NCBI RefSeq assembly: GCF_044647545.1
Contig: NZ_CP172818.1
Strand: one strand, 5' to 3'
Length of the DNA: 64,000 bases
From: Escherichia coli
GTDB lineage: Bacteria; Pseudomonadota; Gammaproteobacteria; Enterobacterales; Enterobacteriaceae
Made by a program: the position numbers and the translations under genes. The notes below the pieces were generated by a model. The model searched no databases. It was given only the letters and a program-made list of their open reading frames with translations, and was not told the DNA's origin. Shown in pieces: positions 20,173 through 48,330 of this stretch (position 1 is its first letter; every line of letters starts with the position of its first letter).

Positions 20173-21642
20173 TTATTTCTTATCGTTCTGCGGGAACTTC
20201 ATTTCGCTGTAGCGTACGAAGTGAGTTCCTTTAATCAGCTTGTATCCGAACCAAATAATCAGGAACAGCGGGATACCAATATACGTTGCCGCTACGCCGC
20301 CCCAGTCAATGGTATCTTTCAGGAACGCTTCGTAGTTCTGGCCCAAAGTGATAATCAGACACAGAATGAATGCGAAGATCGGCCCCAGTGGGAAGAAACC
20401 TGAACGGTACGGCAGATCGTTAATGTCGTGTCCCTGCAATACGTACCCGCGACGGAAACGATAGTGGCTAATGGCAATCCCCAGCCAGGCGATAAAACCG
20501 GTCATCCCGGAGGTGTTCAGCAGCCACAGGTATACCGTCTGGTTGCCAAACATGGAGGTCAGGAAGCACAGACCTGCAATCACCGTCGTCGCATACAGCG
20601 CATTACGCGGCACGCCACCACGCGACAGTTTAGCGAAAATGCGCGGCGCTTTACCGTCACACGCCAGGGTGTACAGCATACGAGTAGACGCATACATACC
20701 GGAGTTACCCGCTGACAGCACCGCCGTCAGAATAACTGCGTTCATCACCGCCGCCGCAGAGAGCAGACCCGCGTGCTGGAACACCAGGGTGAACGGACTG
20801 ACGCTGATGTCTTTAACATCGTTACGCAGCAGGCTCGGATCGGTATACGGAATAATCAGGCTGATAATCAGGATCGCGAACACATAGAACAACAGGATTC
20901 GCCAGAATACCTGACGTACCGCGCGTGGAATGTTTTTCGCCGGATCTTCGGACTCGCCTGCAGCAATACCGATCAGCTCGGTTCCCTGGAAAGAGAAGCC
21001 GACAATCATAGCTACGCCGATCATCGCCGCAAAACCACCAGCAAACGGCGCTTCGCCGATTGTCCAGTTGCTCCAGCCCGCAGGCTGCGCGCCTTTGAAG
21101 ATACCGATAATCATCAGCACGCCAACGATGATAAAGACAATAACTGTCGTGACTTTGATCAGTGAGAACCAGTATTCCGCTTCACCAAAGCCACGAACTG
21201 AGATGTAGTTCAGCAGGAAGATAACGCCGAGGAACAGCGCACTCCAGATCCAGCCCGGTGTATCCGGGAACCACCAGCTCATGACCAGCTGAGCTGCAAC
21301 CAAGTCAACGGCGATAGTCACCGCCCAGTTGTACCAGTAGTTCCAGCCCAGCGCGAAGCCAAAGCCTTCTTCAACATAGTTCTGACCGTAAGTGGCAAAC
21401 GAACCGGAAACCGGCATATATGCAGCCAGTTCACCGAGACTGGTCATCAGGAAGTAAACCATCAGGCCAATCAGCATATACGAGAGCAATGCCCCGCCCG
21501 GACCTGCCTGAGAAATCGTTGCGCCAGAGGCAACAAAAAGACCTGTACCGATGGAACCGCCAATGGCAATCATCGTCAGGTGACGCGCCTTTAATTCACG
21601 GCGTAAGCCCGGCGCTTCTGTAGTTTTAGTTTCGGAACCCAT
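20173..21642 (-). CDS. lysP: Lysine-specific permease (APC family)
   Basis: 489 aa, MGSETKTTEAPGLRRELKARHLTMIAIGG. Confidence 0.95.
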   Translation of the reverse strand: MGSETKTTEAPGLRRELKARHLTMIAIGGSIGTGLFVASGATISQAGPGGALLSYMLIGLMVYFLMTSLGELAAYMPVSGSFATYGQNYVEEGFGFALGWNYWYNWAVTIAVDLVAAQLVMSWWFPDTPGWIWSALFLGVIFLLNYISVRGFGEAEYWFSLIKVTTVIVFIIVGVLMIIGIFKGAQPAGWSNWTIGEAPFAGGFAAMIGVAMIVGFSFQGTELIGIAAGESEDPAKNIPRAVRQVFWRILLFYVFAILIISLIIPYTDPSLLRNDVKDISVSPFTLVFQHAGLLSAAAVMNAVILTAVLSAGNSGMYASTRMLYTLACDGKAPRIFAKLSRGGVPRNALYATTVIAGLCFLTSMFGNQTVYLWLLNTSGMTGFIAWLGIAISHYRFRRGYVLQGHDINDLPYRSGFFPLGPIFAFILCLIITLGQNYEAFLKDTIDWGGVAATYIGIPLFLIIWFGYKLIKGTHFVRYSEMKFPQNDKK

Positions 21643-21846
21643 ACAAAAATGCTATCCATCTTAAAAATGAGGCGCGATTGTAGCAGACGATTGGCAATCC
21701 TTCCGGCAGAAATACACGGTTATAAGACACCTTCATGATCGCCCAGGGATTATAAGTAAAGCAGCCAATCTCTTTTCTGGCGAATGCATGCTGAGGGCGC
21801 TGCGTCACGAAATCGACACAGCACCAGCATGTTCTTGTACAGCACC

Positions 21847-22728
21847 TTAACGCGGTACATTCGCGGGATCGCAATAGTCCAGGAAGCGCCGTAGCGCGTT
21901 GGAAAGGTGTTTTTGCCGATGATGTATACGCCACAACGTACGCATCAGGCGCGGAAGAGGGACCGCAACTTCACTTAATGTGCCTGCCTGCAATTGATCT
22001 TCAATCACCCGTCGCGACAGGCAACTAATACCCAACCCATGACGCACCGCATGTTTGATTGCCTCGGAGTTACCTAATTCCATCGCCATCTCAAACTTCG
22101 GTAAATGTGACAGCAACAGATAATCGACAATCTCCCGCGTGCCGGAGCCGCGTTCACGCAGGATCCACGGCGCAGCGGCCAGCTGTTCTAAGGTGACCGG
22201 ACCACGAGCCAACGGCGAAGTCGGCGCGGCGAAAACCACCAGCTCGTCTTCCAGCCACGGTTCAGAGATGATTTCAGTGCTGTGGCACGGTCCTTCAATA
22301 AAGCCAATATCAACGCGGAAATCCAGCACCGCTTGCATCACGTCCTGGCTATTCCCAACGCTAAGTTCAATCGGCAACTGCGGATAATCATGGCGATAAC
22401 GGGCGATAACTGCAGGCAGAATGTAGTTACCGATGGTACTACTGGCATAGATACGAATCGCGCCGTTGTCTTCGCGAAACAGTTGTTCGATTTCAACCGC
22501 CTGTTCAAGCAGTGCCAACGCTCGCGGATAGAGCAGCCGCCCGTGTTCATTAACTACCAGTCTTTTCCCCACGCGATCAAACAGTTGAACGCCAAGCTGC
22601 CCTTCCAGGTCGGTCAAGGCTGCGCTCACTGCTGATTGCGACAACGCCAGCATCACCGACGCCTGGGTGGTTGATCCACTTTTCAATACTTCTGCAAAAA
22701 CTTCCAACTGCCGGAGGGTGATGTGCAT
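21847..22728 (-). CDS. yeiE: LysR-family transcriptional regulator YeiE
   Basis: 293 aa, [24 protein letters not shown]; N-terminal HTH. Confidence 0.93.
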
Positions 22729-22826
22729 AGTCGCTTACCACTTATAAAGATTAATTATAAATATATAATCAATTTTATTTTTAAACCAGTTAGTCGTAAC
22801 CTTATGCCCGGTTAAAGGAGAGGGTT

Positions 22827-23876
22827 ATGACGAATATCACCTTACAGAAACAACATCGTACACTGTGGCATTTTATTCCGGGGTTAGCCCTGAGTGCAGT
22901 TATCACCGGGGTCGCCCTGTGGGGTGGTTCCATTCCCGCGGTTGCGGGTGCCGGGTTTAGTGCCCTCACCCTCGCAATCTTGTTGGGGATGGTTTTAGGC
23001 AACACCATCTATCCGCACATCTGGAAAAGCTGTGACGGTGGCGTGCTGTTTGCCAAGCAATATTTATTACGTCTGGGTATCATTCTTTATGGCTTCCGTC
23101 TGACGTTCTCGCAAATTGCCGATGTCGGTATCAGTGGGATCATCATTGACGTGTTGACGCTGTCCAGTACCTTCCTGCTGGCTTGCTTCCTGGGGCAGAA
23201 AGTGTTTGGTCTGGATAAGCACACCAGCTGGTTGATCGGTGCCGGTAGCAGTATCTGTGGTGCTGCCGCGGTACTGGCGACTGAGCCGGTAGTGAAAGCG
23301 GAAGCCAGTAAAGTAACCGTGGCTGTTGCAACCGTTGTTATCTTCGGGACCGTCGCGATTTTCCTCTACCCGGCGATATATCCGCTGATGTCTCAATGGT
23401 TTAGTCCGGAAACTTTCGGTATCTACATTGGTTCTACTGTGCACGAAGTGGCGCAGGTGGTGGCGGCAGGTCATGCCATCAGCCCGGATGCAGAAAACGC
23501 AGCAGTTATTTCCAAAATGCTGCGCGTGATGATGCTGGCTCCGTTCCTCATCCTGCTGGCGGCGCGTGTTAAACAGCTGTCTGGGGCGAACAGCGGCGAG
23601 AAAAGCAAAATCACTATTCCGTGGTTTGCCATCTTGTTCATCGTAGTTGCCATCTTTAACTCGTTCCACCTGTTACCGCAGAGCGTAGTGAATATGCTGG
23701 TAACGCTGGATACCTTCCTGCTGGCAATGGCGATGGCGGCGCTGGGTCTGACCACTCACGTCAGCGCGCTGAAAAAAGCCGGGGCGAAACCTCTGCTGAT
23801 GGCTCTGGTACTGTTTGCCTGGCTGATTGTTGGTGGTGGTGCGATTAACTATGTGATTCAAAGCGTCATCGCATAA
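22827..23876 (+). CDS. yeiH: UPF0324-family inner membrane protein YeiH
   Basis: 349 aa polytopic membrane protein, divergent from yeiE. Confidence 0.9.
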
Positions 23877-23949
23877 ACCACTACATCTTGCTCCTGTTAA
23901 CCCGCTATCATTACCGTTTTCCTCCAGCGGGTTTAACAGGAGTCCTCGC

Positions 23950-24807
23950 ATGAAATACATTGGAGCGCACGTTAGTGCTGCTGGCGGTCTGGCAAATGCC
24001 GCAATTCGCGCCGCCGAAATCGACGCAACCGCGTTTGCCTTGTTCACCAAAAACCAACGTCAGTGGCGTGCCGCACCGCTCACGACGCAAACCATCGATG
24101 AATTCAAAGCCGCCTGTGAAAAATATCACTACACATCGGCGCAAATTCTTCCCCACGACAGTTATCTGATTAACCTCGGACATCCGGTCACTGAAGCTCT
24201 GGAAAAATCGCGCGATGCCTTTATAGATGAAATGCAGCGTTGCGAACAGCTGGGGCTTTCTTTGCTCAACTTCCACCCTGGCAGCCATCTGATGCAGATT
24301 TCAGAAGAGGATTGCCTTGCGCGTATTGCCGAATCCATCAACATTGCGCTGGATAAAACTCATGGTGTGACAGCGGTGATTGAAAACACCGCCGGTCAGG
24401 GCAGTAACTTAGGGTTTAAATTCGAACATCTCGCGGCGATTATCGACGGCGTGGAAGATAAATCCCGCGTCGGCGTCTGCATTGATACCTGCCATGCTTT
24501 CGCTGCCGGGTATGATTTGCGTACTTCTGCCGAATGCGAGAAAACGTTCGCGGATTTTGCCCGTATTGTCGGCTTTAAGTATCTGCGCGGGATGCACCTT
24601 AACGATGCGAAAAGCACCTTTGGCAGCCGCGTTGACCGCCATCATAGCCTCGGTGAAGGCAATATCGGTCATGATGCGTTCCGCTGGATCATGCAGGACG
24701 ACCGTTTCGACGGAATTCCGCTGATCCTTGAAACCATCAACCCGGATATCTGGGCAGAAGAGATCGCCTGGCTGAAAGCGCAACAAACTGAAAAAGCGGT
24801 AGCCTGA
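23950..24807 (+). CDS. nfo: Endonuclease IV (AP endonuclease)
   Basis: 285 aa, [39 protein letters not shown]. Confidence 0.96.
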
Positions 24808-24809
24808 AG

Positions 24810-25898
24810 ATGAATAACCGGGAGAAGGAGATCCTTGCAATATTAAGGCGTAACCCGCTGATTCAGCAGAACGAAATTGCGGATATGCTGCAAATCAGCC
24901 GTTCGCGTGTTGCAGCGCATATTATGGATTTAATGCGCAAAGGACGGATTAAAGGCAAAGGTTACATTCTCACCGAGCAGGAATACTGCGTAGTGGTGGG
25001 GACAATCAATATGGATATTCGCGGGATGGCGGATATCCGTTACCCGCAAGCGGCTTCTCATCCCGGTACCATTCATTGCTCGGCAGGCGGCGTTGGACGC
25101 AATATCGCCCACAATCTGGCGCTGTTAGGCCGCGACGTTCATTTGCTTTCAGTGATTGGCGATGACTTTTATGGCGAAATGCTCCTGGAAGAAACGCGCC
25201 GCGCCGGCGTGAATGTCTCCGGCTGCGTTCGTTTACATGGTCAAAGCACATCGACGTATCTGGCAATTGCCAATCGAGACGATCAAACCGTGCTGGCGAT
25301 TAACGATACCCATCTGCTGGATCAGTTGACACCGCAACTACTGAACGGGTCGCGCGATTTACTTCGTCATGCGGGCGTGGTACTGGCAGATTGTAACCTG
25401 ACAGCCGAGGCGCTGGAATGGGTCTTTACCCTCGCTGATGAAATCCCGGTGTTTGTCGATACCGTTTCAGAATTCAAAGCGGGCAAAATCAAACACTGGC
25501 TGGCGCATATTCACACCCTGAAACCCACTTTACCGGAGCTGGAAATTTTATGGGGACAGGCGATCACCAGCGATGCTGACCGTAATGCCGCAGTGAATGC
25601 ATTACATCAGCAAGGTGTTCAGCAACTGTTTGTTTATTTGCCCGATGAGTCAGTTTATTGCAGCGAAAAGGATGGAGAACAATTTTTGCTGACCGCACCA
25701 GCGCATACGACAGTAGACAGTTTTGGTGCTGACGATGGTTTTATGGCGGGTCTGGTATATAGCTTTCTGGAGGGAAACAATTTCCGTGACAGCGCCCGTT
25801 TTGCGATGGCCTGCGCAGCAATTTCACGCGCCAGCGGCAGCTTAAACAACCCTACCCTGTCTGCCGATAACGCGCTTTCATTAGTGCCGATGGTGTAA
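24810..25898 (+). CDS. yeiI: Putative PfkB-family nucleoside/sugar kinase with N-terminal HTH domain, YeiI
   Basis: 362 aa; N-terminal about 50 residues (MNNREKEILAILRRNPLIQQNEIADMLQISRSRVAAHIMDLMRKG) look like a winged helix-turn-helix; remainder aligns by eye with PsuK in this window (GGVGRNIA, LKPN/TLKP motifs). Confidence 0.88.
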   Translation: MNNREKEILAILRRNPLIQQNEIADMLQISRSRVAAHIMDLMRKGRIKGKGYILTEQEYCVVVGTINMDIRGMADIRYPQAASHPGTIHCSAGGVGRNIAHNLALLGRDVHLLSVIGDDFYGEMLLEETRRAGVNVSGCVRLHGQSTSTYLAIANRDDQTVLAINDTHLLDQLTPQLLNGSRDLLRHAGVVLADCNLTAEALEWVFTLADEIPVFVDTVSEFKAGKIKHWLAHIHTLKPTLPELEILWGQAITSDADRNAAVNALHQQGVQQLFVYLPDESVYCSEKDGEQFLLTAPAHTTVDSFGADDGFMAGLVYSFLEGNNFRDSARFAMACAAISRASGSLNNPTLSADNALSLVPMV

Positions 25899-25905
25899 CA
25901 ATGTT

Positions 25906-25939
25906 GCCGGATTCGACGCTTGACCGCGTCTTATCCGGC
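25906..25939. repeat. REP-like palindromic element
   Basis: GCCGGATTCGACGCTTGACCGCGTCTTATCCGGC between convergent yeiI and nupX. Confidence 0.6.
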
Positions 25940-25953
25940 TCATAACTCGCGCA

Positions 25954-27204
25954 CTACGCTAAACCAATAAAGAACCCGGCAATGGTGGCACTCATCAGGT
26001 TAGAAAGTGTCGCCGCCGCCAGCGCGCGTAAACCAAGCTGGGCGATTTCCGGCGCACGGTGTGGCGCAACCGCAGAAAACGCCCCCACCACCACCCCGAT
26101 AGAACCAAAGTTAGCGAAACCGCACAACGCGAAGGAAATAATCGCCACGGTTTTAGCATCCAGAGTGCCAGCTGTTTGCAGATAAGGTGAGAAATTGAGG
26201 TAAGCGACAAATTCATTTATTGCCAGTTTCTGTCCAATCAAACTCCCGGCAAGATTCGCATCACTCCAGTCAACACCCATTACCCACGCCAGTGGGGCCA
26301 GCAGGTAACCTAAAATGGACTCCAGCGAGGCATGTTCAAAACCAAACCAGCCGCCAACGCCGCCGATAATACCGTTAATCAACGCAATTATTGCAACAAA
26401 TGCCATCACCACTGTCGCCACACCTGCGGCGATTTTCAGCCCGGTCATTGCCCCTGTCGCAGCGGCTTCAATAATGCTTTTTGGCGGTGTTTCGGTGAAA
26501 GAGAGGTTATTAAAGGAAACCTGCGAAGATTCCGTGGCCGGACTTAACAGGCGAGCAAATAAGATCCCGCCAGGGATCGCCATTAACGATGCCGCCAGCA
26601 AATATTCCACAGGTACGCCCAGTGCGGCGTAACCAATCATTGTCGAACCAGCAATCGAGGCCATGCCACTACAAATCGCTGTAAATAATTCATTGCGATT
26701 CAGCCGATCGATAAAGGGTTTGACGATTGCCGGAATTTCGTTTTGCCCGAGGAAAATGGTAGTGACCGCGACGAATGACTCGATCTTGCTGATATTTAAT
26801 GCTTTCTGGAAGATACCGCCGAGAATGCGAATTAAGATCCCCATCACACCGATGTAGTAGAGAATACTCACCAGCGCGGTGACGAAGATAATTGCCGGTA
26901 ATACTCTGAAACCAAAGATAAATCCTGCACCATCAAACAGCGTGTCCATTTTCGGCCCGACCAGCGAACCGAAGATAAATGCGCTACCCGCGTCGCTGTA
27001 CGCCATCACTTTATGGACGCCAAAAGCGACTTTTTCAGCGACCCAACGCCCTGGCGGTAACCAAAGCATAATGCCGCCAATCACGACCTGTAACACTAAC
27101 GCCGCGCCAACGGTACGCAGGCTGATCCTCTTCTTGTTTACTGACAGCAAAAATGCAATTGCCAGCAATACCACCATTCCCAGAACACTTCTCATGACAT
27201 CCAT
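25954..27204 (-). CDS. nupX: NupC-family nucleoside permease NupX
   Basis: 416 aa, MDVMRSVLGMVVLLAIAFLLSVNKK; close paralog of PsuT in this window. Confidence 0.93.
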   Translation of the reverse strand: MDVMRSVLGMVVLLAIAFLLSVNKKRISLRTVGAALVLQVVIGGIMLWLPPGRWVAEKVAFGVHKVMAYSDAGSAFIFGSLVGPKMDTLFDGAGFIFGFRVLPAIIFVTALVSILYYIGVMGILIRILGGIFQKALNISKIESFVAVTTIFLGQNEIPAIVKPFIDRLNRNELFTAICSGMASIAGSTMIGYAALGVPVEYLLAASLMAIPGGILFARLLSPATESSQVSFNNLSFTETPPKSIIEAAATGAMTGLKIAAGVATVVMAFVAIIALINGIIGGVGGWFGFEHASLESILGYLLAPLAWVMGVDWSDANLAGSLIGQKLAINEFVAYLNFSPYLQTAGTLDAKTVAIISFALCGFANFGSIGVVVGAFSAVAPHRAPEIAQLGLRALAAATLSNLMSATIAGFFIGLA

Positions 27205-27303
27205 AGTTATTATCTCTTCATGTCATTTTGGGCGACGGCTTTCTGCCCATCAGAAATCGCCGGGCCTGCATCTTGCGATACTGTCCCGGCTTGTTATCAA
27301 CAC

Positions 27304-28245
27304 TTAATGGGTTTTGATGTAGCCGCGCACGCACTCTTCGACTAATCCCCAGAACCAGTCAGTATCAATAGTGATGCCGACTTTGGTATTGGCGGGCTTG
27401 CCAAGAACGCCCAGCTCGTCGCAGACGGTACGCCCATAGCAAGGGCCACTGTTAACATCCACTTCGACGTACATCTCCTGGGTTTTAATGCCATCTGGGT
27501 TAATCAGATAACCGATGCAGGTGGCGTCATGCACCGGGCCGCCAGCCAGGCCGTAGTTTTCGAACTGGGTTTTGAGAGTGAAGTTCATGATGTCGCTGAA
27601 CAGCTCTCCGGCAGGGCCGCCTGCCCTTTCCATTCGTGCAATCACGTCCGGGGTGCAAACGGTCTGGTTGGTGAGATCGAGGCCCATCATTACTAATGGA
27701 ACGCCGGAGGTGAACACCACACGTGCCGCTTCCGGATCAGCAAAGATGTTGAACTCGGCAGATGGCGTGAAGTTGCCAGTACCGTAAGCGCCGCCCATCA
27801 GTACAATTTCACGGATTTTCGGCAGAATTGCGGGTTGCATCCGCATTGCCACCGCGATGTTTGAAAGCGGACCAACCGGCACCAGAGTGATATCGCCATC
27901 GCTTGCCATCAGGGTATCGATGATATATTTCACCGCATGGGTGTTTTCTGCCTGACGAGTCAGCGGTTCGAATACCGGACCATCCAGCCCGGTTTCACCG
28001 TGAATATTATCGGCAACGATTTGTTGACGCATAATGGGTTGCGACATCCCCGCATAAACCGGAACATTAATCTCCAGTTTCTGGCAAACATTCAGGCCAT
28101 TAATTAATGTTTTATCGAGGGTTTGATTCCCCGCCACAATAGTGATACCTAATAAATCAATCGCCGGATGTTTCGCTGCCATCATCATTGCAATAGCATC
28201 ATCATGACCCGGATCACAATCCAGAATAATTTTTCTTTTTTCCAT
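27304..28245 (-). CDS. rihB: Pyrimidine-specific ribonucleoside hydrolase RihB
   Basis: 313 aa, [23 protein letters not shown] (DXDXXXDD nucleoside hydrolase motif). Confidence 0.94.
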
Positions 28246-28413
28246 TGTTTATTTCCTCTGTTTCCAGTTGCGTTATTTTTTCTACAGCAAAGAAAATTCG
28301 ACCGGGCCGATGATTGAATCTTAACAACAGCGTACGTATGCTAAATATGAGAAATCTCATAGCGGATAAACATCGTGAAAGAAATCCACAATAATGATCT
28401 TAAGCAGCAATTG

Positions 28414-29073
28414 ATGAGTGAATCCGCGTTTAAGGATTGCTTTTCAACGGATGTTTCAGCCGATACGCGGCTGTTTCATTTTTTAGCGCGTGACTACATA
28501 GTGCAGGAAGGGCAACAGCCGTCCTGGCTGTTTTACCTGACGCGAGGCCGCGCCAGGCTTTACGCCACGCTAGCTAATGGTCGCGTGTCGCTGATCGATT
28601 TCTTTGCCGCGCCCTGTTTTATTGGTGAGATTGAGTTAATCGATAAAGACCATGAACCGCGTGCGGTACAGGCTATTGAAGAGTGTTGGTGCCTTGCGCT
28701 CCCTATGAAACATTACCGTCCGCTGTTATTAAACGACACGCTATTTTTACGAAAACTTTGCGTCACCTTAAGTCATAAAAATTATCGTAATATTGTTTCT
28801 TTAACTCAGAATCAATCATTTCCGTTAGTGAATCGCCTGGCAGCATTTATATTACTCTCGCAGGAAGGTGATCTTTATCACGAAAAACATACCCAGGCGG
28901 CAGAGTATTTAGGTGTTACTTATCGTCACTTGCTATATGTGATCGCTCAACTCATTCACGACGGTTTATTAATTAAAAGTAAGAAAGGGTATTTAATTAA
29001 AAACAGAAAGCAGTTGTCAGGACTGGCGCTGGAGATGGACCCGGAGAATAAATTCTCCGGGATGATGCAGTAA
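28414..29073 (+). CDS. yeiL: CRP/FNR-family transcriptional regulator YeiL
   Basis: Track ORF 28375..29073 trimmed to [12 protein letters not shown] (219 aa); C-terminal HTH. Confidence 0.85.
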
Positions 29074-29097
29074 AAATTAATCTGCAATAGCGCGATT

Positions 29098-29133
29098 GCC
29101 GGATGCAACACTTAATAAGCGCGTACATCCGGC
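29098..29133. repeat. REP-like palindromic element
   Basis: GCCGGATGCAACACTTAATAAGCGCGTACATCCGGC between convergent yeiL and psuT; 8-bp GCCGGATG/CATCCGGC arms. Confidence 0.55.
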
Positions 29134-29141
29134 AATGAAAC

Positions 29142-30392
29142 TCAAGCTAAACCAATAAAGAACCCGGCAATGGTCGCGCTCATCAGGTTGGAAAGCGTTG
29201 CTGCTGCCAGCGCCCGTAAACCAAGCTGAGCGATTTCCGGTGCGCGTTTTGGCGAAATAGCCGAAAATGCCCCAACGACAACACCGATAGAACCAAAGTT
29301 AGCAAAACCACAAAGCGCAAAGGAGATAATCGCAATGGTTTTCACTTCCAGCGTGCCGCCCGTTTGCAGGTATGGGGAGAAACTCAGGTAAGCGACGAAT
29401 TCGTTAATCGCCAGTTTCTGCCCAATCAGGCTACCCGCAAGATTGGCATCACTCCAGTCCACACCCATGATCCACGCCAGCGGTGCCAGCACATAGCCGA
29501 AAATACTTTCCAGAGAGGCATTGGCGAAACCAAACCAGCCGCCGATTCCGCCGATAATGCCGTTGATCAGCGCAATAATTGCGACAAACGCCATTACTAC
29601 CGTTGCTACACCAGCGGCGATTTTCAGCCCGGTCATCGCACCGCTCGCCGCTGCTTCGATAAAGCTTTTTGGCGGCGTTTCGCTGAACGATAAATTTTCA
29701 AATGTGACCTGCGAAGGCTCGGTTGCCGGGCTAAGAATACGTGCAAACAAAATCCCGCCAGGGATCGCCATCAGCGATGCCGCTAACAGGTAGTCAATTG
29801 GTACGCCCATTCCGGCATAACCGATCATCATCGAACCCGCAATGGACGCCATCCCGCTACAAATTGCAGTAAACAACTCGTTGCGATTCATGCGATCGAT
29901 AAACGGTTTAACGATCGCAGGGATCTCATTTTGCCCGAGGAAAATAGTGGTAACCGCAACAAAAGATTCGATTTTGCTGATGTTGAGAGCTTTCTGAAAA
30001 ATACTGCCAAGAATGCGGATTAGCAGCCCCATCACGCCAATGTAGTACAGCAGACTGATGAGCGCAGTAACGAAAATAATCGCCGGAAGTACGCGAAAGG
30101 CGAAGATAAAACCCGCACCGTCAAACAAGACATCCATTTTCGGCCCAACCAGCGAACCAAAAATGAAGGCGCTACCGGCATCACTGTAAGACATCACTTT
30201 ATGAACGCCTAATGCCGCCAGTTCAACTGCCCATTTTCCCGGTGGGAAGTAGAGCATGATGCCACCAATAGCGATTTGCAGCAGCAGCGCGGCTCCAACC
30301 GTGCGTAAACTGATGCTCTTTTTATTCACTGATAACAGAAATGCTATTACCAGTAACACCACCATCCCCACAACACTTCTCATTATATCCAT
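29142..30392 (-). CDS. psuT: NupC-family pseudouridine/nucleoside transporter PsuT (YeiM)
   Basis: 416 aa, MDIMRSVVGMVVLLVIAFLLSVNKK; near-identical in length and sequence to NupX. Confidence 0.92.
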   Translation of the reverse strand: MDIMRSVVGMVVLLVIAFLLSVNKKSISLRTVGAALLLQIAIGGIMLYFPPGKWAVELAALGVHKVMSYSDAGSAFIFGSLVGPKMDVLFDGAGFIFAFRVLPAIIFVTALISLLYYIGVMGLLIRILGSIFQKALNISKIESFVAVTTIFLGQNEIPAIVKPFIDRMNRNELFTAICSGMASIAGSMMIGYAGMGVPIDYLLAASLMAIPGGILFARILSPATEPSQVTFENLSFSETPPKSFIEAAASGAMTGLKIAAGVATVVMAFVAIIALINGIIGGIGGWFGFANASLESIFGYVLAPLAWIMGVDWSDANLAGSLIGQKLAINEFVAYLSFSPYLQTGGTLEVKTIAIISFALCGFANFGSIGVVVGAFSAISPKRAPEIAQLGLRALAAATLSNLMSATIAGFFIGLA

Positions 30393-30484
30393 AATGATTT
30401 CCCCTTCATACCAGTAAACCCGACGTCAGCGCCAGGTTCTGGTATGTATGATCATACGGGCGACGGCTTTCTGCCCGTCAGAAA

Positions 30485-31423
30485 TTAACCCGCGAGACGC
30501 TGGTATTCTTTGGCAATTTCGCTCGCCAGAATGGCGTTGTTGAACACCAGTTGGATGTTGGATTTCAGACTGTCACCGCCGGTCAGTTCTGCAACACGAG
30601 CCAGTAGGAACGGTGTACTTTCTTTACCAATAACGCCCTGCTCTTCGGCTTCGGCGACGGCCTGATCTATGGCTGCATTAATTGACTCCTCCGCCATCGC
30701 AAACTGCTCCGGGATCGGATTCGCCACTACCAGACCACCGTTCAAACCGGTTTGCCATTTCACTGCCATTGCACGAGCGATTTCTGTGGCACTATCAAGG
30801 CGAATGCTGACCTCAAACGGGCTGGTACGGCAGAAAAACGCAGGCAGCGCTTTTGTCTGATAGCCAATTAACGGCACACCGAAGGTTTCTAAATATTCTG
30901 TTGTTAATCCTAAATCGAGAATGGATTTTGCACCGGCACAAACAACGGTGACATTAGTATTTGCCAGTTCTTGCAAATCGGCAGAAATATCGAAGGTATG
31001 TTCCGCCCCGCGATGCACACCACCAATTCCCCCGGTGGCAAATACTTTAATTCCGGCAAGCGCCGCAATAATCATCGTTGAAGCCACAGTGGTTGCGCCA
31101 TTTTTTCCGGCGGCAACAACAAAAGGTAAATCGCGACGACTAACTTTGGTCACGTTATGCCCTTCGCGACCCAGCAATTCAATTTCTTCTTTGCTTAAAC
31201 CCACTTTCATCACGCCGCCAATAATGGCGATAGTGGCAGGTACAGCGCCCTGTTTACGAATAGTTTCTTCAACTTCAATTGCGGTCTGGGCATTTTGTGG
31301 GAACGGCATCCCATGAGAAATAATGGTCGATTCCAGCGCCACAACCGGTTTTTTGTTTTTTAAAGCGTCCTGCACTTCCGGGGAAATTTGTAATAATTCA
31401 GGGGAAATTTTTAATTCAGACAT
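30485..31423 (-). CDS. psuG: Pseudouridine-5'-phosphate glycosidase PsuG (YeiN)
   Basis: 312 aa, MSELKISPELLQISPEVQDALKNKKPVVALESTIISHGMPFPQN. Confidence 0.94.
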   Translation of the reverse strand: MSELKISPELLQISPEVQDALKNKKPVVALESTIISHGMPFPQNAQTAIEVEETIRKQGAVPATIAIIGGVMKVGLSKEEIELLGREGHNVTKVSRRDLPFVVAAGKNGATTVASTMIIAALAGIKVFATGGIGGVHRGAEHTFDISADLQELANTNVTVVCAGAKSILDLGLTTEYLETFGVPLIGYQTKALPAFFCRTSPFEVSIRLDSATEIARAMAVKWQTGLNGGLVVANPIPEQFAMAEESINAAIDQAVAEAEEQGVIGKESTPFLLARVAELTGGDSLKSNIQLVFNNAILASEIAKEYQRLAG

Positions 31424-32352
31424 TCTGCGTTCTCCACTAACGATATAACGTTGGCAATCGATAAATCGGGGTTATTGGTGTATTCACAGGAGAGCGCCAT
31501 TGACGAACATCCCTGTGCGAAACGAACGGATTCGGCAAACGGCATTCCGTCTACCCAACACGAAGCAAGTCCCGCCATCATGGCATCGCCCGCTCCGGTA
31601 ACATTAATAACATTGGTTTTGATCGGCGCAGACCAGCCACTTTCACCGCTGATATCGCTGTAATAAACGCCATCGCCGCCCATGCTCAATACCAGTCGGT
31701 TCAGCCCATGTTGATGGAACCAGGCAGCAACTTTTGCCACATCTTCACGCCCTGACAGCGCAATCCCACTCAGGGTTTCCGCTTCAAGGCGGTTTGGCTT
31801 GAGAGTGTGGATTTGATTTAGACGGTCGCGCACTTTGACACATTTCCACGCAGAAACCGGATCGACAAATACGGGTACGTTGGCGGCATTATCCAGAATC
31901 CATGCCAGTGCCTCTTCACTGATATTACAGTCCGCGACAATGACCTTTGCCCTCTGAATAAATTCACGATGCTGTGCGAGATATTCAGCTGTAATAGCGT
32001 TGCTAATATTCATGTCATTTATAGCAACTAGCATTTCACCGGTATTATCGAGTAATGATAAATAGCTCGACGTATTTTCTCCCGGCACAATCAGGCATTT
32101 ATCGACATAAACACCAGATTGATTGGTTTGCGTTAGCAACGATTGACCATAAAAATCACTGCCTACTGCGCTCAGTAGCCAGGCTTTATTCCCCAGCAAC
32201 GCCAGGTTTTGTGCAATATTGCGCCCTACTCCACCAGGCGTAAACTTTATTTTACCTGGATTTGAATCCGCATAATTTAATGATTCATGTGAATATCCGG
32301 CGACATCAATATTCGCCGAACCTATAATTACGACATAATCCTTTTCGCGCAT
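31411..32352 (-). CDS. psuK: Pseudouridine kinase PsuK (YeiC), PfkB family
   Basis: 313 aa, MREKDYVVIIGSANIDVAG; 13-nt overlap with psuG. Confidence 0.93.
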   Translation of the reverse strand: MREKDYVVIIGSANIDVAGYSHESLNYADSNPGKIKFTPGGVGRNIAQNLALLGNKAWLLSAVGSDFYGQSLLTQTNQSGVYVDKCLIVPGENTSSYLSLLDNTGEMLVAINDMNISNAITAEYLAQHREFIQRAKVIVADCNISEEALAWILDNAANVPVFVDPVSAWKCVKVRDRLNQIHTLKPNRLEAETLSGIALSGREDVAKVAAWFHQHGLNRLVLSMGGDGVYYSDISGESGWSAPIKTNVINVTGAGDAMMAGLASCWVDGMPFAESVRFAQGCSSMALSCEYTNNPDLSIANVISLVENAECLN

Positions 32353-32592
32353 AGCACGTCCTCTGGTAAAAAATTACCAACCCTGTCAATCCACAAGAAT
32401 ATAGATACTGCAAAGACGGTTTAAACATGTGTTCATATTTAAACATGTGCTCATAGTATGCATGTTTTACGTAAAGTAAATTACCGCCAGAGAGGCAAAA
32501 TGGGCAGATTTGAGCAGGCTCACAAAACGCGATTAAATGCCTGAATTATAAAAACGGGGAATTTGTGACGGGAGGCACAGAACAGGAACAAT

Positions 32593-32618
32593 AAAAAAGG
32601 GCAGAAATTAATCTGCCC
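32593..32618 (-). terminator. Rho-independent terminator downstream of fruA
   Basis: Hairpin GGGCAGA-AATTAA-TCTGCCC at 32599-32618 followed on the minus strand by a six-U run; a second hairpin without a U-tract at about 32739-32765 lies closer to the fruA stop. Confidence 0.65.
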
Positions 32619-32775
32619 TTGAGGAAATAACCTTAGTGTTTGATGAAAGTTTCAGGTTTCCACTAAAAGATAAAACCATTTAAATTCATAAAATTACATT
32701 CACAAACCGGTCATTCTCTTTGCGCGCATCAAATGTTCCAGGGCAGGAAATTTCTGCCCTGGAACACACCTTTTA

Positions 32776-34467
32776 TTACGCTGCTTTTGCTACTGCGTCC
32801 ACTTCCGGACGTTTCAGGAAGGCATAGGCCAGACCCGCCACCAGCGTACCGGCAATAATGGCTACCAGGTAACCCAATACCGGCGTAATCGCGCCAGGGA
32901 TCAGCAGAACAAACAGACCACCGTGCGGTGCCATCAGTTTCGCACCAATCGCCATTGAGATTGCGCCAGTCAGCGCCCCACCCACGATACAGCACGGCAG
33001 CACACGCATCGGATCACGGGCAGCAAACGGAATTGCACCTTCCGAAATAAAGCACAGTCCCAGTACCAGAGCAGCTTTGCCCCCTTCCTGCTGCGCCTTG
33101 TCGAATTTGCGACGCGCTACCATTGTTGCCAGCCCCATTGCCAGCGGTGGCACCATACCTGCCGCCATAATCGCCGCCATCGGGCCATAGGTTTGAGTAC
33201 TCAGCAGACCCACACCGAACGCGTACGCTGCTTTGTTTACCGGACCGCCCATGTCAGTACACATCATGCCACCGAGGATCGCCCCCAGCAGAACCGCATT
33301 CGCAGTCCCCATGGTCTGCAGCCAGTGAGTCAACCCTTCGAGAATGCCAGCAACCGGTTTACCGATCAGGTAGATCATCGCCAGACCGACCACCAGACTG
33401 GAAATTAGCGGAATGATCAGAATCGGTTTCAGCGCCTCCATACTCTGTGGCAGTTTCAATTGCGTACTGATTAACTTCGCAATGTAACCAGCCAGGAAGC
33501 CCGCAATAATACCGCCAATGAAGCCAGAACCGGTGCTGACCGCCAGCATACCGCCAATCAGACCCGGCGTGAGGCCCGGACGATCGGCAATGGAAAAGGC
33601 AATATAACCTGCCAGTACCGGCACCATTAGCGCAAAGGCTGAACCTCCACCAATCTGCATCAGCGCCGCAGCCAACGTACCCGGCTCTTTAAACGCTTCG
33701 ATACCAAAAGCAAAAGAAAGCGCGATACACAGACCACCTGCAACGACCATCGGCAGCATGTAAGAGACGCCCGTCAGCAAGTGACGGTAAGCGCCTGCAC
33801 TCTCTTTCTTACCTTCAGTGGTCGCTGTTTGAGCTTTGCCCGCTGGTTCATACGGCGTTGCTTCAGCAACCGCTTTATCCAGTTCCTGCGCAGTTTTCTT
33901 CAGCGCCAGACCGGTAGAGGTGCGATACATCGGTTTACCAGCAAATTTCGCCAGATCCACTTCGATATCTGCCGCCACAATCACCAGATCCGCTGCGGCG
34001 ACTTCTTCAGGGGTGATTGCATTACCTGCGCCAACAGAACCACGGGTTTCAACTTTCACCCACCAGCCACGTTTTTTCGCTTCGGTTTCAATGGCTTCAG
34101 CCGCCATAAAGGTGTGTGCTACGCCAGTCGGGCAAGCAGTCACCGCAACTACGCGTTTCGGACCGCTGGCGGCAACCGGTGCTGTCGCAGCGACCGGCGC
34201 AGTGTAAGGTTTCGCATGGCCTTTGGCTTCACTCAGGAACAGCTCAGGGTGCGCAACTGCCCGGGAAATATCGCCCAGCCAGACATTTTTACCGTTCAGC
34301 GCGCTGTCGTTCGGGATGGAATCACCGAGAACAATCGCCATTTCAGCGTCGTTCGGATTGTCGATGATTTCCAGTTTTGCTTTTCGCGCCGCCGCGCCCA
34401 GCAGGGTCTTCGCCATATAGGCGCGTGCCTGACCGAGATTAGCGTCAATAATCAGCAGCGTTTTCAT
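32776..34467 (-). CDS. fruA: PTS fructose-specific EIIB'BC component
   Basis: 563 aa, MKTLLIIDANLGQARAYMAKTLLGAAARKAKLEIIDNPND. Confidence 0.96.
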   Translation of the reverse strand: MKTLLIIDANLGQARAYMAKTLLGAAARKAKLEIIDNPNDAEMAIVLGDSIPNDSALNGKNVWLGDISRAVAHPELFLSEAKGHAKPYTAPVAATAPVAASGPKRVVAVTACPTGVAHTFMAAEAIETEAKKRGWWVKVETRGSVGAGNAITPEEVAAADLVIVAADIEVDLAKFAGKPMYRTSTGLALKKTAQELDKAVAEATPYEPAGKAQTATTEGKKESAGAYRHLLTGVSYMLPMVVAGGLCIALSFAFGIEAFKEPGTLAAALMQIGGGSAFALMVPVLAGYIAFSIADRPGLTPGLIGGMLAVSTGSGFIGGIIAGFLAGYIAKLISTQLKLPQSMEALKPILIIPLISSLVVGLAMIYLIGKPVAGILEGLTHWLQTMGTANAVLLGAILGGMMCTDMGGPVNKAAYAFGVGLLSTQTYGPMAAIMAAGMVPPLAMGLATMVARRKFDKAQQEGGKAALVLGLCFISEGAIPFAARDPMRVLPCCIVGGALTGAISMAIGAKLMAPHGGLFVLLIPGAITPVLGYLVAIIAGTLVAGLAYAFLKRPEVDAVAKAA

Positions 34468-47235: not shown

Positions 47236-48330
47236 ATGGGCGCTTATCTGATTCGCCGTCTGTTGCTGGTGATCCCAACGTTATGGGCGATTATCACTAT
47301 CAACTTTTTCATCGTGCAAATTGCGCCTGGCGGTCCGGTCGACCAGGCCATCGCCGCCATTGAGTTTGGTAATACTGGTGTATTACCCGGTGCAGGCGGT
47401 GAAGGTGTTCGCGCTAGCCATGCACAAACGGGCGTCGGTAATATCAGCGACAGTAATTACCGTGGCGGACGCGGATTAGATCCAGAAGTGATCGCCGAGA
47501 TCACTCATCGCTACGGTTTCGATAAGCCGATCCACGAACGTTACTTCAAAATGCTCTGGGACTACATCCGCTTTGATTTTGGCGACAGCCTTTTTCGCAG
47601 CGCCTCGGTGCTGACGCTGATTAAAGACAGTCTGCCGGTCTCCATCACCCTCGGATTGTGGAGCACGCTGATTATCTATCTGGTGTCGATTCCGTTAGGC
47701 ATTCGCAAAGCTGTTTATAATGGGAGCCGCTTTGACGTCTGGAGTAGCGCATTTATCATCATCGGCTACGCCATTCCGGCCTTTTTGTTTGCCATCCTGC
47801 TGATTGTCTTTTTCGCAGGCGGCAGCTATTTCGACCTGTTCCCTCTACGCGGCCTGGTTTCCGCTAACTTTGATTCGCTGCCGTGGTATCAGAAAATCAC
47901 CGATTATCTGTGGCATATCACGCTGCCGGTGCTGGCGACTGTGATTGGTGGCTTTGCAGCGCTGACCATGCTGACAAAAAACTCATTCCTTGATGAAGTG
48001 CGTAAGCAATACGTGGTGACGGCACGTGCGAAAGGGGTAAGTGAAAAAAATATTCTCTGGAAACATGTGTTCCGCAACGCCATGCTGCTGGTGATTGCCG
48101 GTTTTCCGGCGACGTTTATCAGCATGTTTTTTACCGGCTCGCTGCTGATTGAGGTGATGTTTTCACTCAATGGTCTTGGTTTACTGGGCTACGAAGCGAC
48201 CGTCTCGCGCGATTATCCTGTAATGTTTGGTACCTTGTATATTTTCACCCTGATTGGCCTGCTGCTGAATATTGTCAGTGATATCAGCTATACGCTGGTC
48301 GATCCGCGTATAGATTTTGAGGGACGTTAA
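47236..48330 (+). CDS. yejB: ABC transporter permease YejB
   Basis: 364 aa, [34 protein letters not shown]. Confidence 0.93.

Follow-up and report, generated by a model that had tools for sequence, protein, structure and literature searches.

YeiI, a winged-helix PfkB fusion protein encoded beside the pseudouridine operon of Escherichia coli, as a candidate regulator of psuKGT

Several transcription factors consist of an N-terminal helix-turn-helix (HTH) followed by an enzyme or by a ligand domain derived from one: BirA and NadR are bifunctional enzyme/repressors, and the ROK repressors NagC and Mlc derive from sugar kinases, their kinase fold sensing the sugar without catalysis. Here, we describe YeiI of Escherichia coli, a protein of the same layout whose gene lies in a 64,000-nucleotide stretch of contig NZ_CP172818.1 (RefSeq assembly GCF_044647545.1; the entire stretch is termed the window, and coordinates refer to it unless stated otherwise). 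In YeiI, the HTH precedes a PfkB (ribokinase-like) domain, a fold to which the biotin ligase BirA, the nicotinamide mononucleotide adenylyltransferase/ribosylnicotinamide kinase NadR, and the actin-like ATPase fold of ROK proteins are unrelated, and the sensing mode of the ROK repressors is the model that we propose for it. Specifically, YeiI may be a one-component regulator of the pseudouridine operon psuK-psuG-psuT (psuKGT), with a sensor domain derived from the pseudouridine kinase PsuK, a reading to which we assign a probability of roughly 55%.

The closest described relative is E. coli PsuK itself (also PUKI or YeiC; PDB accession numbers 7vkp, 7vtd, and 7vva), which has in common with YeiI the PfkB fold, the pseudouridine contacts, the catalytic Asp, and the chromosomal neighborhood. 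PsuK, however, lacks an HTH and keeps an NXXE motif (N187 to E190) and a GAGD anion hole where YeiI reads TLPE and GADD, and whereas psuK shares its operon with psuG and supports growth on pseudouridine, yeiI is convergent to psuKGT and lies outside the operon. The second relevant group comprises HTH-PsuK fusions of Yersinia, Serratia, Hafnia, Photorhabdus, Xenorhabdus, Morganella, Gilliamella, Pasteurella, Shewanella, and Aliivibrio (annotated as “pseudouridine kinase” or “PfkB family carbohydrate kinase”), which have the two-domain architecture of YeiI, its GKGY linker, an HTH that is 73% identical to that of YeiI, and, upstream of the psu genes, the same pair of AACAYRTGTT boxes at the promoter. 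Unlike YeiI, these fusions retain canonical NXXE and GAGD motifs and are the first gene and only kinase of a psuG(-psuT) operon, whereas yeiI is a separate convergent gene, and the adjacent operon encodes an HTH-less kinase of its own.

Two further systems offer precedents from unrelated folds. RbkR, an archaeal CTP-dependent riboflavin kinase and regulator, combines a winged HTH (wHTH) with a small-molecule kinase and controls genes of its own pathway, as proposed here for YeiI; it was found by comparative genomics, and its kinase activity and DNA binding were shown experimentally, whereas YeiI is known here from sequence and models (PMC5397151). In NrtR, a Nudix domain from an enzyme family serves as the effector domain of a wHTH protein and has degenerate catalytic motifs in many members, as in YeiI, but the wHTH is C-terminal, the fold is different, and the pathway is that of NAD (PMC2330246). 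The architecture of YeiI is compatible with the class represented by BirA, NadR, and RbkR, although the motif changes described below cast doubt on catalysis.

The HTH-PfkB architecture of YeiI is not new, as it is present in Pfam and in NCBI annotation, where some YeiI relatives are named “winged helix-turn-helix transcriptional regulator.” YeiI has been listed among the hypothetical transcription factors of strain K-12 (PMC6055005), and its function was called unknown in papers of 2022 and 2025 (PMC9061257, PMC12506659), a machine-learning call of YeiI as a second pseudouridine kinase having been rejected. Our literature search found no paper on the experimental function of YeiI, on a psu regulator, or on a characterized HTH-PfkB regulator; one paper names “YeiI” as a LysR-type regulator, apparently by mistake for YeiE (PMC6698644). 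What we add are the altered kinase motifs, the gene context, a candidate operator, and the placement of the psuK promoter and of a recurrent mutation within it.

Domain architecture of YeiI and substitutions in its kinase motifs

The open reading frame (ORF) begins with ATG and is 100% identical to annotated yeiI genes in several complete E. coli genomes; 5422 of 5426 complete genomes contain a match to it, and the product is 98.4% identical to the K-12 protein (b2160). Over residues 1 to 362 of 362, it scores 813.6 bits against NCBIfam model NF007416 (“sugar kinase,” the YeiI equivalog; cutoff of 561). Its score against the PsuK equivalog model NF007355 (EC 2.7.1.83) is 257.9 bits, under the cutoff of 540, and by this measure YeiI is not a PsuK equivalog.

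The initial annotation, made from the sequence alone, had taken the first 50 or so residues for a winged-helix DNA-binding domain, quoting a stretch that matches residues 5 to 47 exactly (EKEILAILRRNPLIQQNEIADMLQISRSRVAAHIMDLMRKGRI), and had suggested hidden Markov models or structure prediction as a check. Both were run and agree on a wHTH; a fold of a kind that does not bind DNA did not appear. Pfam HTH_24 aligns to residues 1 to 48 over the whole profile (positions 1 to 48 of 48) with an E value of 1.2e-10 and 41.2 bits, against a gathering score of 21.9. The AlphaFold2 model of full-length YeiI, a monomer built on 126 fusion homologs (mean predicted local distance difference test [pLDDT] of 94.4; predicted template modeling [TM] score of 0.90), places helices at residues 3 to 14, 20 to 27, and 31 to 43 and strands at residues 47 to 49 and 52 to 53, which form a beta-hairpin wing. 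This wing (approximately residues 47 to 53) holds a nearly invariant GKGY and leads straight into the first strand of the kinase domain. When the N-terminal 62 residues are modeled alone, the pLDDT is 78.6, and Foldseek aligns the isolated domain to DNA-binding wHTH structures only (root mean square deviation [rmsd] of ~1.2 Å over 49 residues; TM score of ~0.7), including those of the Lrp/AsnC family (ST1022, PH0061, and LrpA), MarR, LexA, ArsR/CadC, and BirA. Across the 126 fusions, whose overall identity falls to ~30%, residues R31, S32, A35, H37, L41, K44, G45, G49, and Y52 are invariant or nearly so. By sequence profile and by fold, YeiI is a protein of the wHTH transcription factor type, with DNA binding as the predicted function.

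The remainder of the protein had been described as a complete ribokinase-like kinase with GG and anion-hole motifs, a description that holds for the fold and the GG dipeptide but not fully for the active-site motifs, because the NXXE motif reads TLPE and the anion hole is ambiguous, reading GADD. The closest solved relative is PsuK (7vkp; E value of 3e-67; 38 to 39% identity), and Foldseek superimposes the YeiI model on PsuK 7vtd with a TM score of 0.95 on the target, an rmsd of 2.0 Å, and 38% identity. Over PsuK and ribokinases together, TM scores on the target range from 0.77 to 0.96, which places YeiI in the ribokinase-like alpha/beta fold with its beta-sheet lid. No PDB chain was found that spans both the HTH and the kinase domain, and the full YeiI model matches over the kinase domain alone.

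Much of the substrate site is preserved. PsuK holds pseudouridine through N14, D16, S30, G41, N45, N143, and K170 (PMC9061257, PMC9247573), and these residues are retained in YeiI as N67, D69, S83, G94 (within G93-G94, equivalent to PsuK G40-G41), N98, N196, and K223. Two positions differ from PsuK (M114 to T167 and W169 to F222). The catalytic Asp is likewise kept (YeiI D309, equivalent to PsuK D256), and Asp217 and Glu243 are also conserved.

The substitutions concern the phosphate- and metal-binding motifs. In the ribokinase family, the glycines of GXGD recognize the donor phosphates and NXXE binds Mg2+/phosphate (PMC5931981, PMC3118340), and in PsuK, N187 and E190 have a role near Mg2+ (PMC9247573). 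In every protein at least 56% identical to YeiI, the Asn of NXXE is replaced by Thr, Ser, or Ala, with the Glu mostly kept, and in nearly all of them GAGD has become GADD, the exceptions being ASDD and GADE. This survey of the YeiI clade, from which two frameshifted or fragmentary entries were set aside, covers Escherichia, Salmonella, Citrobacter, Enterobacter, Klebsiella, Kluyvera, Buttiauxella, Leclercia, Phytobacter, Kosakonia, Pseudocitrobacter, and Affinibrenneria. Both canonical motifs are retained in PsuK and in nearly all of the more distant fusions (P0104 is an exception). The change from NXXE to TXXE together with that from GXGD to GADD across the clade suggests that YeiI may be a ligand sensor more than a working kinase, and we judge its kinase activity to be reduced or altered.

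We searched 1.84 billion representative proteins. The best 150 matches include 137 full-length representatives, 109 of which carry the HTH, as indicated by alignments that begin at residue 1 to 3, and 28 of which do not. Noncanonical catalytic motifs occur in 23 of the 109 HTH-bearing proteins versus 2 of the 28 HTH-less proteins, which is a trend only (Fisher P = 0.105), and the catalytic Asp is lost in 9/109 versus 0/28, again a trend only. Among the distant HTH-PfkB fusions, P0184 and P0153 (L082 180-1292 and L083 3325-4452, both metagenome contigs) lack the catalytic Asp as well as the Asn of NXXE; the former has a nucleoside hydrolase gene downstream, with a PRAI-like gene and an Fe-ADH gene, and the latter follows genes for ATP-binding cassette permeases. 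In these proteins, a PfkB domain may have become a pure sensor independently, and their loci are compatible with regulator roles.

Gene neighborhoods, the psuK promoter, and candidate operator boxes

Using the HTH and linker as bait in one-genome-per-species contigs, we collected 80 loci (the bait was a gammaproteobacterial subset, which biases the sample toward Enterobacterales). These show two arrangements. In arrangement A (41 loci), psuG lies directly downstream of the fusion gene in the same orientation, with psuT also present in about half. Its hosts are Yersinia, Serratia, Hafnia, Photorhabdus, Xenorhabdus, Morganella, and Gilliamella, as well as a Fusobacteriaceae metagenome-assembled genome (MAG), Tepidibacter, and a proteobacterial MAG. 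Loci of Shewanella, Pasteurella, and Aliivibrio, examined separately, have the same gene order. The kinase domains of these fusions are 54 to 60% identical to E. coli PsuK and have canonical motifs, and this identity, together with the gene context, indicates that the fusion is the pseudouridine kinase of its operon.

In arrangement B, the order is nfo, yeiI, and then convergent psuT, psuG, and psuK, with psuK lacking an HTH; yeiI adjoins psuT-psuG-psuK in 36/36 Enterobacteriaceae/Affinibrenneria loci with sequence past yeiI. In the window, a block of nupX, rihB, and yeiL (25954..29073) stands between yeiI and psuT. This block was inserted in some lineages only: it occurs in Escherichia, C. 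amalonaticus, Phytobacter diazotrophicus, and Entomohabitans and is absent from E. albertii and from most Citrobacter, Enterobacter, Klebsiella, Kluyvera, and Buttiauxella. Because the block is lineage specific and the psu operon is beside yeiI in all 36 loci, the constant partner of yeiI is the psu operon and not nupX/rihB.

The two domains of YeiI have changed at different rates. The HTH is 92% identical within the YeiI clade and 73% identical between YeiI and the arrangement A fusions, and the corresponding values for the kinase domain are 73% and 48%; kinase domains of HTH-less PsuK and arrangement A fusions are 59% identical. The HTH is, on these alignments, the best-conserved segment of YeiI. 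In a neighbor-joining tree of the kinase domain, Enterobacteriaceae PsuK is sister to the arrangement A fusions, and the YeiI clade, with its long stem, branches off immediately outside these two groups. Identities and tree fit a scenario in which an HTH-PsuK gene duplicated, one copy lost its HTH, and the kinase domain of the HTH-keeping copy changed faster.

The psuK promoter can be placed with the help of laboratory evolution. Studies of E. coli report a recurrent A-to-C single nucleotide polymorphism (SNP) between psuK and fruA, at position 2257444 of NC_000913.2, which rose in most mice and in long-term stationary-phase K-12 cultures and is reported to lie in the psuK promoter and to alter growth with pseudouridine (PMC7518454, PMC9509342, PMC7858067, PMC10340439). 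With an offset of 1978 between NC_000913.2 and NC_000913.3, the only one that reproduces all four srlR amino acid changes given in the same tables, the SNP falls at position 2259422 of NC_000913.3 and at window position 32478, on the minus strand. This is the third T of the −35 hexamer, so that TTTACT becomes TTGACT, a textbook up-mutation; the assignment to the −35 hexamer is absent from the passages of the evolution papers that were available, which say promoter or intergenic.

Immediately downstream of this promoter are two copies of a palindrome, AACAYRTGTT. On the sense strand, the layout upstream of psuK is TTTACT - 16 nt - TACTAT - G - AGCACATGTT - TAAATATG - AACACATGTT, and the same elements (a −35 TTTACT, a −10 hexamer, and two boxes 18 bp apart) recur in front of psuK in loci of arrangement B and in front of the fusion gene in those of arrangement A. 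Since the SNP fixes the position of the promoter, the boxes run from just after the −10 hexamer into the early transcribed region, which is a position typical of repressors.

We scored every position of every locus for two boxes spaced 17 to 19 bp apart (maximum score of 20). In arrangement B, the tandem boxes outscore every other position of the 11- to 25-kb locus in 31/31 cases and lie 60 to 250 bp upstream of psuK, with scores of 17 to 20 versus 13 to 16 in shuffled sequence. In arrangement A, the single best site lies 29 to 33 bp upstream of the fusion gene in 19 of 29 loci, and the top-scoring site is also at the psu promoter in Shewanella (18/20), Pasteurella (17), and Aliivibrio (17). 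The sole negative control (n = 1), a metagenomic psuK-psuG locus without an HTH, has no boxes above background. On these scans, the constrained site travels with the HTH-bearing gene, fused or neighboring, across five gammaproteobacterial orders. An extension to Firmicutes and Fusobacteria is suggestive: in Tepidibacter, a relaxed tandem pattern matches once within 16 kb, at a distance of 41 bp ahead of the fusion gene, although this pattern is poorly registered and missed known sites, and boxes in Fusobacteriaceae look similar by eye only.

Within the 64-kb window, boxes with at most one mismatch occur four times (8 are expected by chance), two of them being the psuK pair, and none is near yeiI, nfo, nupX, rihB, or yeiL. 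Of the promoters that the initial annotation had suggested for binding tests, only that of psuK has a conserved candidate operator, and rihB, nupX, and yeiL have nothing comparable; the same is true of yeiI. The other two matches are an exact box (AACATGTGTT) at 48062-48071, inside the ORF at 47236-48330 and without a partner at 18 bp, which we take as chance, and a one-mismatch site at 52972.

A separate observation concerns translation. In Yersinia, Serratia, and Hafnia (L040, L041, L043, L051, etc.), box 1 contains an ATG, ~30 bp ahead of the HTH-psuK start, that opens an in-frame extension (MFKNKQVS...) and is taken as the start codon in some annotations. The operator of these genera thus overlaps a possible translation start, and no obvious Shine-Dalgarno sequence precedes the conserved MT(S/N)REKQIL start.

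Table 1. Features of the yeiI-psuK region, with coordinates in the window
Feature	Position	Strand	Basis or remark
nfo (endonuclease IV)	23950..24807	+	Annotation; directly upstream of yeiI
yeiI coding sequence, 362 aa + stop	24810..25898	+	ORF list, identity to annotated yeiI, NF007416
Winged helix-turn-helix domain, residues 1-54	24810..24971	+	Pfam HTH_24, AlphaFold2, Foldseek, conservation
Predicted recognition helix, residues 31-43 (RSRVAAHIMDLMR)	24900..24938	+	Third helix of AlphaFold2 model
PfkB (ribokinase-like) domain, PsuK-like, residues 58-348	24981..25853	+	Pfam PfkB, E value of 5e-68, 230 bits
GG dipeptide, G93 G94	25086..25091	+	Hinge of the lid; invariant in 126 aligned sequences
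Degenerate NXXE, T240-L-P-E243	25527..25538	+	Asn (PsuK N187) replaced, Glu kept
Variant anion hole, G306-A-D308-D309	25725..25736	+	Second Gly of GXGD changed to Asp; catalytic Asp kept
nupX	25954-27204	-	Convergent with yeiI; nupX-rihB-yeiL module
rihB	27304-28245	-	nupX-rihB-yeiL module
yeiL	28375-29073	+	nupX-rihB-yeiL module
psuT	29142-30392	-	ORF and annotation; pseudouridine catabolic operon
psuG	30485-31423	-	ORF and annotation; pseudouridine catabolic operon
psuK	31411-32352	-	ORF and annotation; pseudouridine catabolic operon
psuK-psuG-psuT operon, proposed YeiI target	29142..32352	-	ORFs, annotation, locus comparison
Candidate operator box 2, sense AACACATGTT	32424..32433	-	18 bp start to start from box 1
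Candidate operator box 1, sense AGCACATGTT	32442..32451	-	Sequence and comparative scan; directly after -10
psuK -10 hexamer TACTAT, 16-nt spacer after -35	32453..32458	-	Inferred from position and conservation
psuK -35 hexamer TTTACT	32475..32480	-	Sequence; conserved in Enterobacterales loci

Proposed mechanism and competing explanations

The suggestion in the initial annotation that YeiI is a possible one-component regulator on a kinase fold fits the comparative data, and we propose the following route to it. An ancestral bifunctional HTH-PsuK, of the kind that still appears to head HTH-psuK-psuG(-psuT) operons in several orders of Gammaproteobacteria, would have undergone duplication in the lineage that gave rise to Enterobacteriaceae. 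The psuK copy would have lost the HTH and stayed the kinase of the operon; in the other, yeiI, the HTH would have remained almost unchanged as the kinase domain diverged faster and its two phosphate/Mg2+ motifs were altered. YeiI would dimerize, probably through the PfkB beta-clasp as PsuK does, and the dimer would sit on the two AACAYRTGTT palindromes, 18 bp apart and just after the psuK −10 hexamer, and repress psuK-psuG-psuT. The conserved nucleoside pocket would take pseudouridine, its phosphate, or a close derivative, and ligand binding with lid closure, as ligands bring about in PsuK, would shift the geometry of the HTH pair and relieve repression. The most specific form of this proposal, in which YeiI is a PfkB “pseudokinase” repressor, silenced or strongly slowed as an enzyme and constituting the regulatory half of a split ancestral HTH-pseudouridine kinase, is a tentative one that we regard as well short of even odds.

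Several points weigh against regulation of psuKGT by YeiI or against parts of this mechanism. (i) The catalytic Asp and the GADD sequence are strongly conserved, which argues that the active site still does something. (ii) The evolution experiments, in the portions of the papers and supplements available, repeatedly lost the repressors srlR, frlR, dgoR, and glpR, and no yeiI mutations appear in the same text and supplements, where psu is represented by one promoter SNP only; this counts against YeiI because null alleles of a simple repressor should be an easy adaptive route. (iii) The box pattern was derived from the same orthologous promoters in which it was then scored, so that the scans establish a constrained site and not the protein that binds it, and the negative control for the boxes amounts to a single locus. 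(iv) The literature search returned no chromatin immunoprecipitation, SELEX (systematic evolution of ligands by exponential enrichment), knockout, or other experiment linking YeiI to DNA or to psuKGT. (v) The timing of the duplication is uncertain, as the tree carries no support values and may be subject to long-branch effects. (vi) The AlphaFold2 model covers the monomer alone.

The first alternative, which corresponds to the initial annotation, is that YeiI is a fully active kinase as well as a regulator, which phosphorylates pseudouridine or a ribonucleoside handled by NupX and RihB and thereby couples catalysis to transcription in the manner of BirA, NadR, or RbkR. We rate this as possible though doubtful. 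The PfkB fold is complete; Asp309, Glu243, Asp217, and all of the nucleoside-binding residues are conserved; and GADD is conserved rather than decaying. PROSITE PfkB signature 2, for its part, tolerates an Asp at the second-Gly position of the anion hole. In E. coli, yeiI adjoins nupX and rihB, and the canonical-motif fusions elsewhere are the only kinase of their psu operons, which makes a bifunctional ancestor probable. Nevertheless, two residues that contact the phosphate donor or Mg2+ (PMC5931981, PMC3118340), namely, the Asn of NXXE and the second Gly of GXGD, are changed clade-wide, and the nupX-rihB-yeiL block, which carries no box, was inserted in particular lineages and is missing next to yeiI in most genera. 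Moreover, a psuK mutant is reported to be one that cannot use pseudouridine despite having yeiI, so that yeiI does not rescue it (PMC12506659, citing Preumont 2008), so on that account YeiI is no substitute for PsuK in vivo.

The converse alternative is that YeiI is an enzyme only, its HTH being structural or vestigial and the psu boxes being bound by another transcription factor. DNA binding by YeiI is a prediction and the RefSeq label is “sugar kinase,” and point (ii) also speaks for it, in that the available parts of the evolution studies report no yeiI mutations where psuK upregulation was selected. A vestigial domain would decay, however, whereas no segment of YeiI is better conserved than the HTH, with a recognition helix that is near-invariant in >100 clusters (50% identity), and this conservation argues that the HTH is not vestigial. 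The boxes, in addition, follow the HTH-bearing gene across gammaproteobacterial orders and are missing in the HTH-less control, and the loss of the catalytic Asp tends to occur in HTH-bearing relatives. An enzyme-only YeiI is, in our estimation, unlikely.

Finally, the boxes lie downstream of the −10 hexamer and so are probably transcribed, and 86.7% of box 1:box 2 cells pair (42 distinct sequences), but a 5′ untranslated region RNA hairpin between the boxes, or a DNA cruciform, that steers psuK without YeiI is very unlikely, since this pairing matches a column-shuffle control (86.1 ± 0.5%; reached by 86/500 shuffles), covariation is 0.120 versus 0.111 in the control (90/500 shuffles), the central dinucleotides are unable to pair in E. 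coli and several Citrobacter, the conservation from Shewanella to E. coli lies in sequence and not in pairing, and window positions 21000 to 34000 have no match in Rfam, with no known riboswitch at psuK. With pairing and covariation at control level, the RNA hairpin is not supported, and the constraint appears to be on sequence, as expected for a protein-binding site.

Surroundings of yeiI, allelic variation, and significance

The position of yeiI directly after nfo and converging on nupX, as initially described, is confirmed: the yeiI ATG follows the nfo stop codon after 2 nt, a spacing conserved in all Enterobacteriaceae examined, and the gene ends 55 bases from nupX. The 2-nt spacing suggests cotranscription with nfo, an oxidative-stress gene. 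A consensus scan for a separate yeiI promoter gave chance-level matches only, none of them convincing; the sole consensus-like promoter nearby is a weak CTGCCA-16-TATGAT inside nfo (window 24489-24516). An RpoD genomic SELEX table nevertheless has a holoenzyme-binding peak entered for “nfo > yeiI” (PMC3946193). The convergent gap between yeiI and nupX (window 25899-25953) includes GCCGGATTCGACGCTTGACCGCGTCTTATCCGGC, which resembles, by eye, a repetitive extragenic palindromic element. With ~80% DNA identity to psuT, nupX looks like a psuT duplicate (paralog), and in E. coli NZ_CP173588, which has the alternative yeiI allele described next, nupX is cut down to a 66-bp remnant.

There are two deeply divergent yeiI alleles in E. 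coli, with 3360 complete genomes at least 95% identical to the window and 2012 genomes at ~80.5%. Divergence starts exactly at the start codon and ends ~200 bp before the stop (window 24801-25700, i.e., most of yeiI). Synonymous divergence (dS) between the allele classes is ~1.0 to 1.5, versus 0.054 for the adjacent nfo, with a ratio of nonsynonymous to synonymous divergence (dN/dS) of ~0.1, and the alternative allele is 91% identical to yeiI of E. albertii. Similarly, psuK is ~81% identical between the two strains compared (dS of 1.3), but the yeiI and psuK allele classes do not coincide, because 1209 genomes give no psuK megablast match. Truncated yeiI products also occur in sizeable groups of E. 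coli (P0025, P0055, and H32), including a 289-aa form with 236 member sequences that is named “winged helix-turn-helix transcriptional regulator,” such that some E. coli lineages may carry only the HTH and part of the kinase domain.

E. coli K-12 still has genes to which no function is assigned, yeiI among them, and this gene can now be attached to a named hypothesis that is cheaply testable: a regulator (YeiI), a candidate operator of ~28 bp at a mapped promoter, a target (psuKGT), and a likely ligand (pseudouridine). Were regulation of psuKGT by YeiI borne out, it would identify how enterobacteria control the catabolism of the most abundant modified nucleoside, in a pathway that, according to the mouse-gut evolution studies, has repeatedly come under selection; it would also show cleanly how duplication can separate an enzyme/regulator fusion into an enzyme and a sensor, and strains that produce pseudouridine could be fitted with biosensors based on a transcription factor responsive to it. 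If YeiI were, more specifically, a pseudokinase repressor, it would be the first characterized transcription factor on a PfkB fold, it would fill the place of the missing regulator in the enterobacterial salvage of modified nucleosides (pseudouridine), it would account for adaptation of E. coli to the gut via the −35 up-mutation at psuK, and the divergent yeiI and psuK haplotypes could reflect selection on the sensing circuit.

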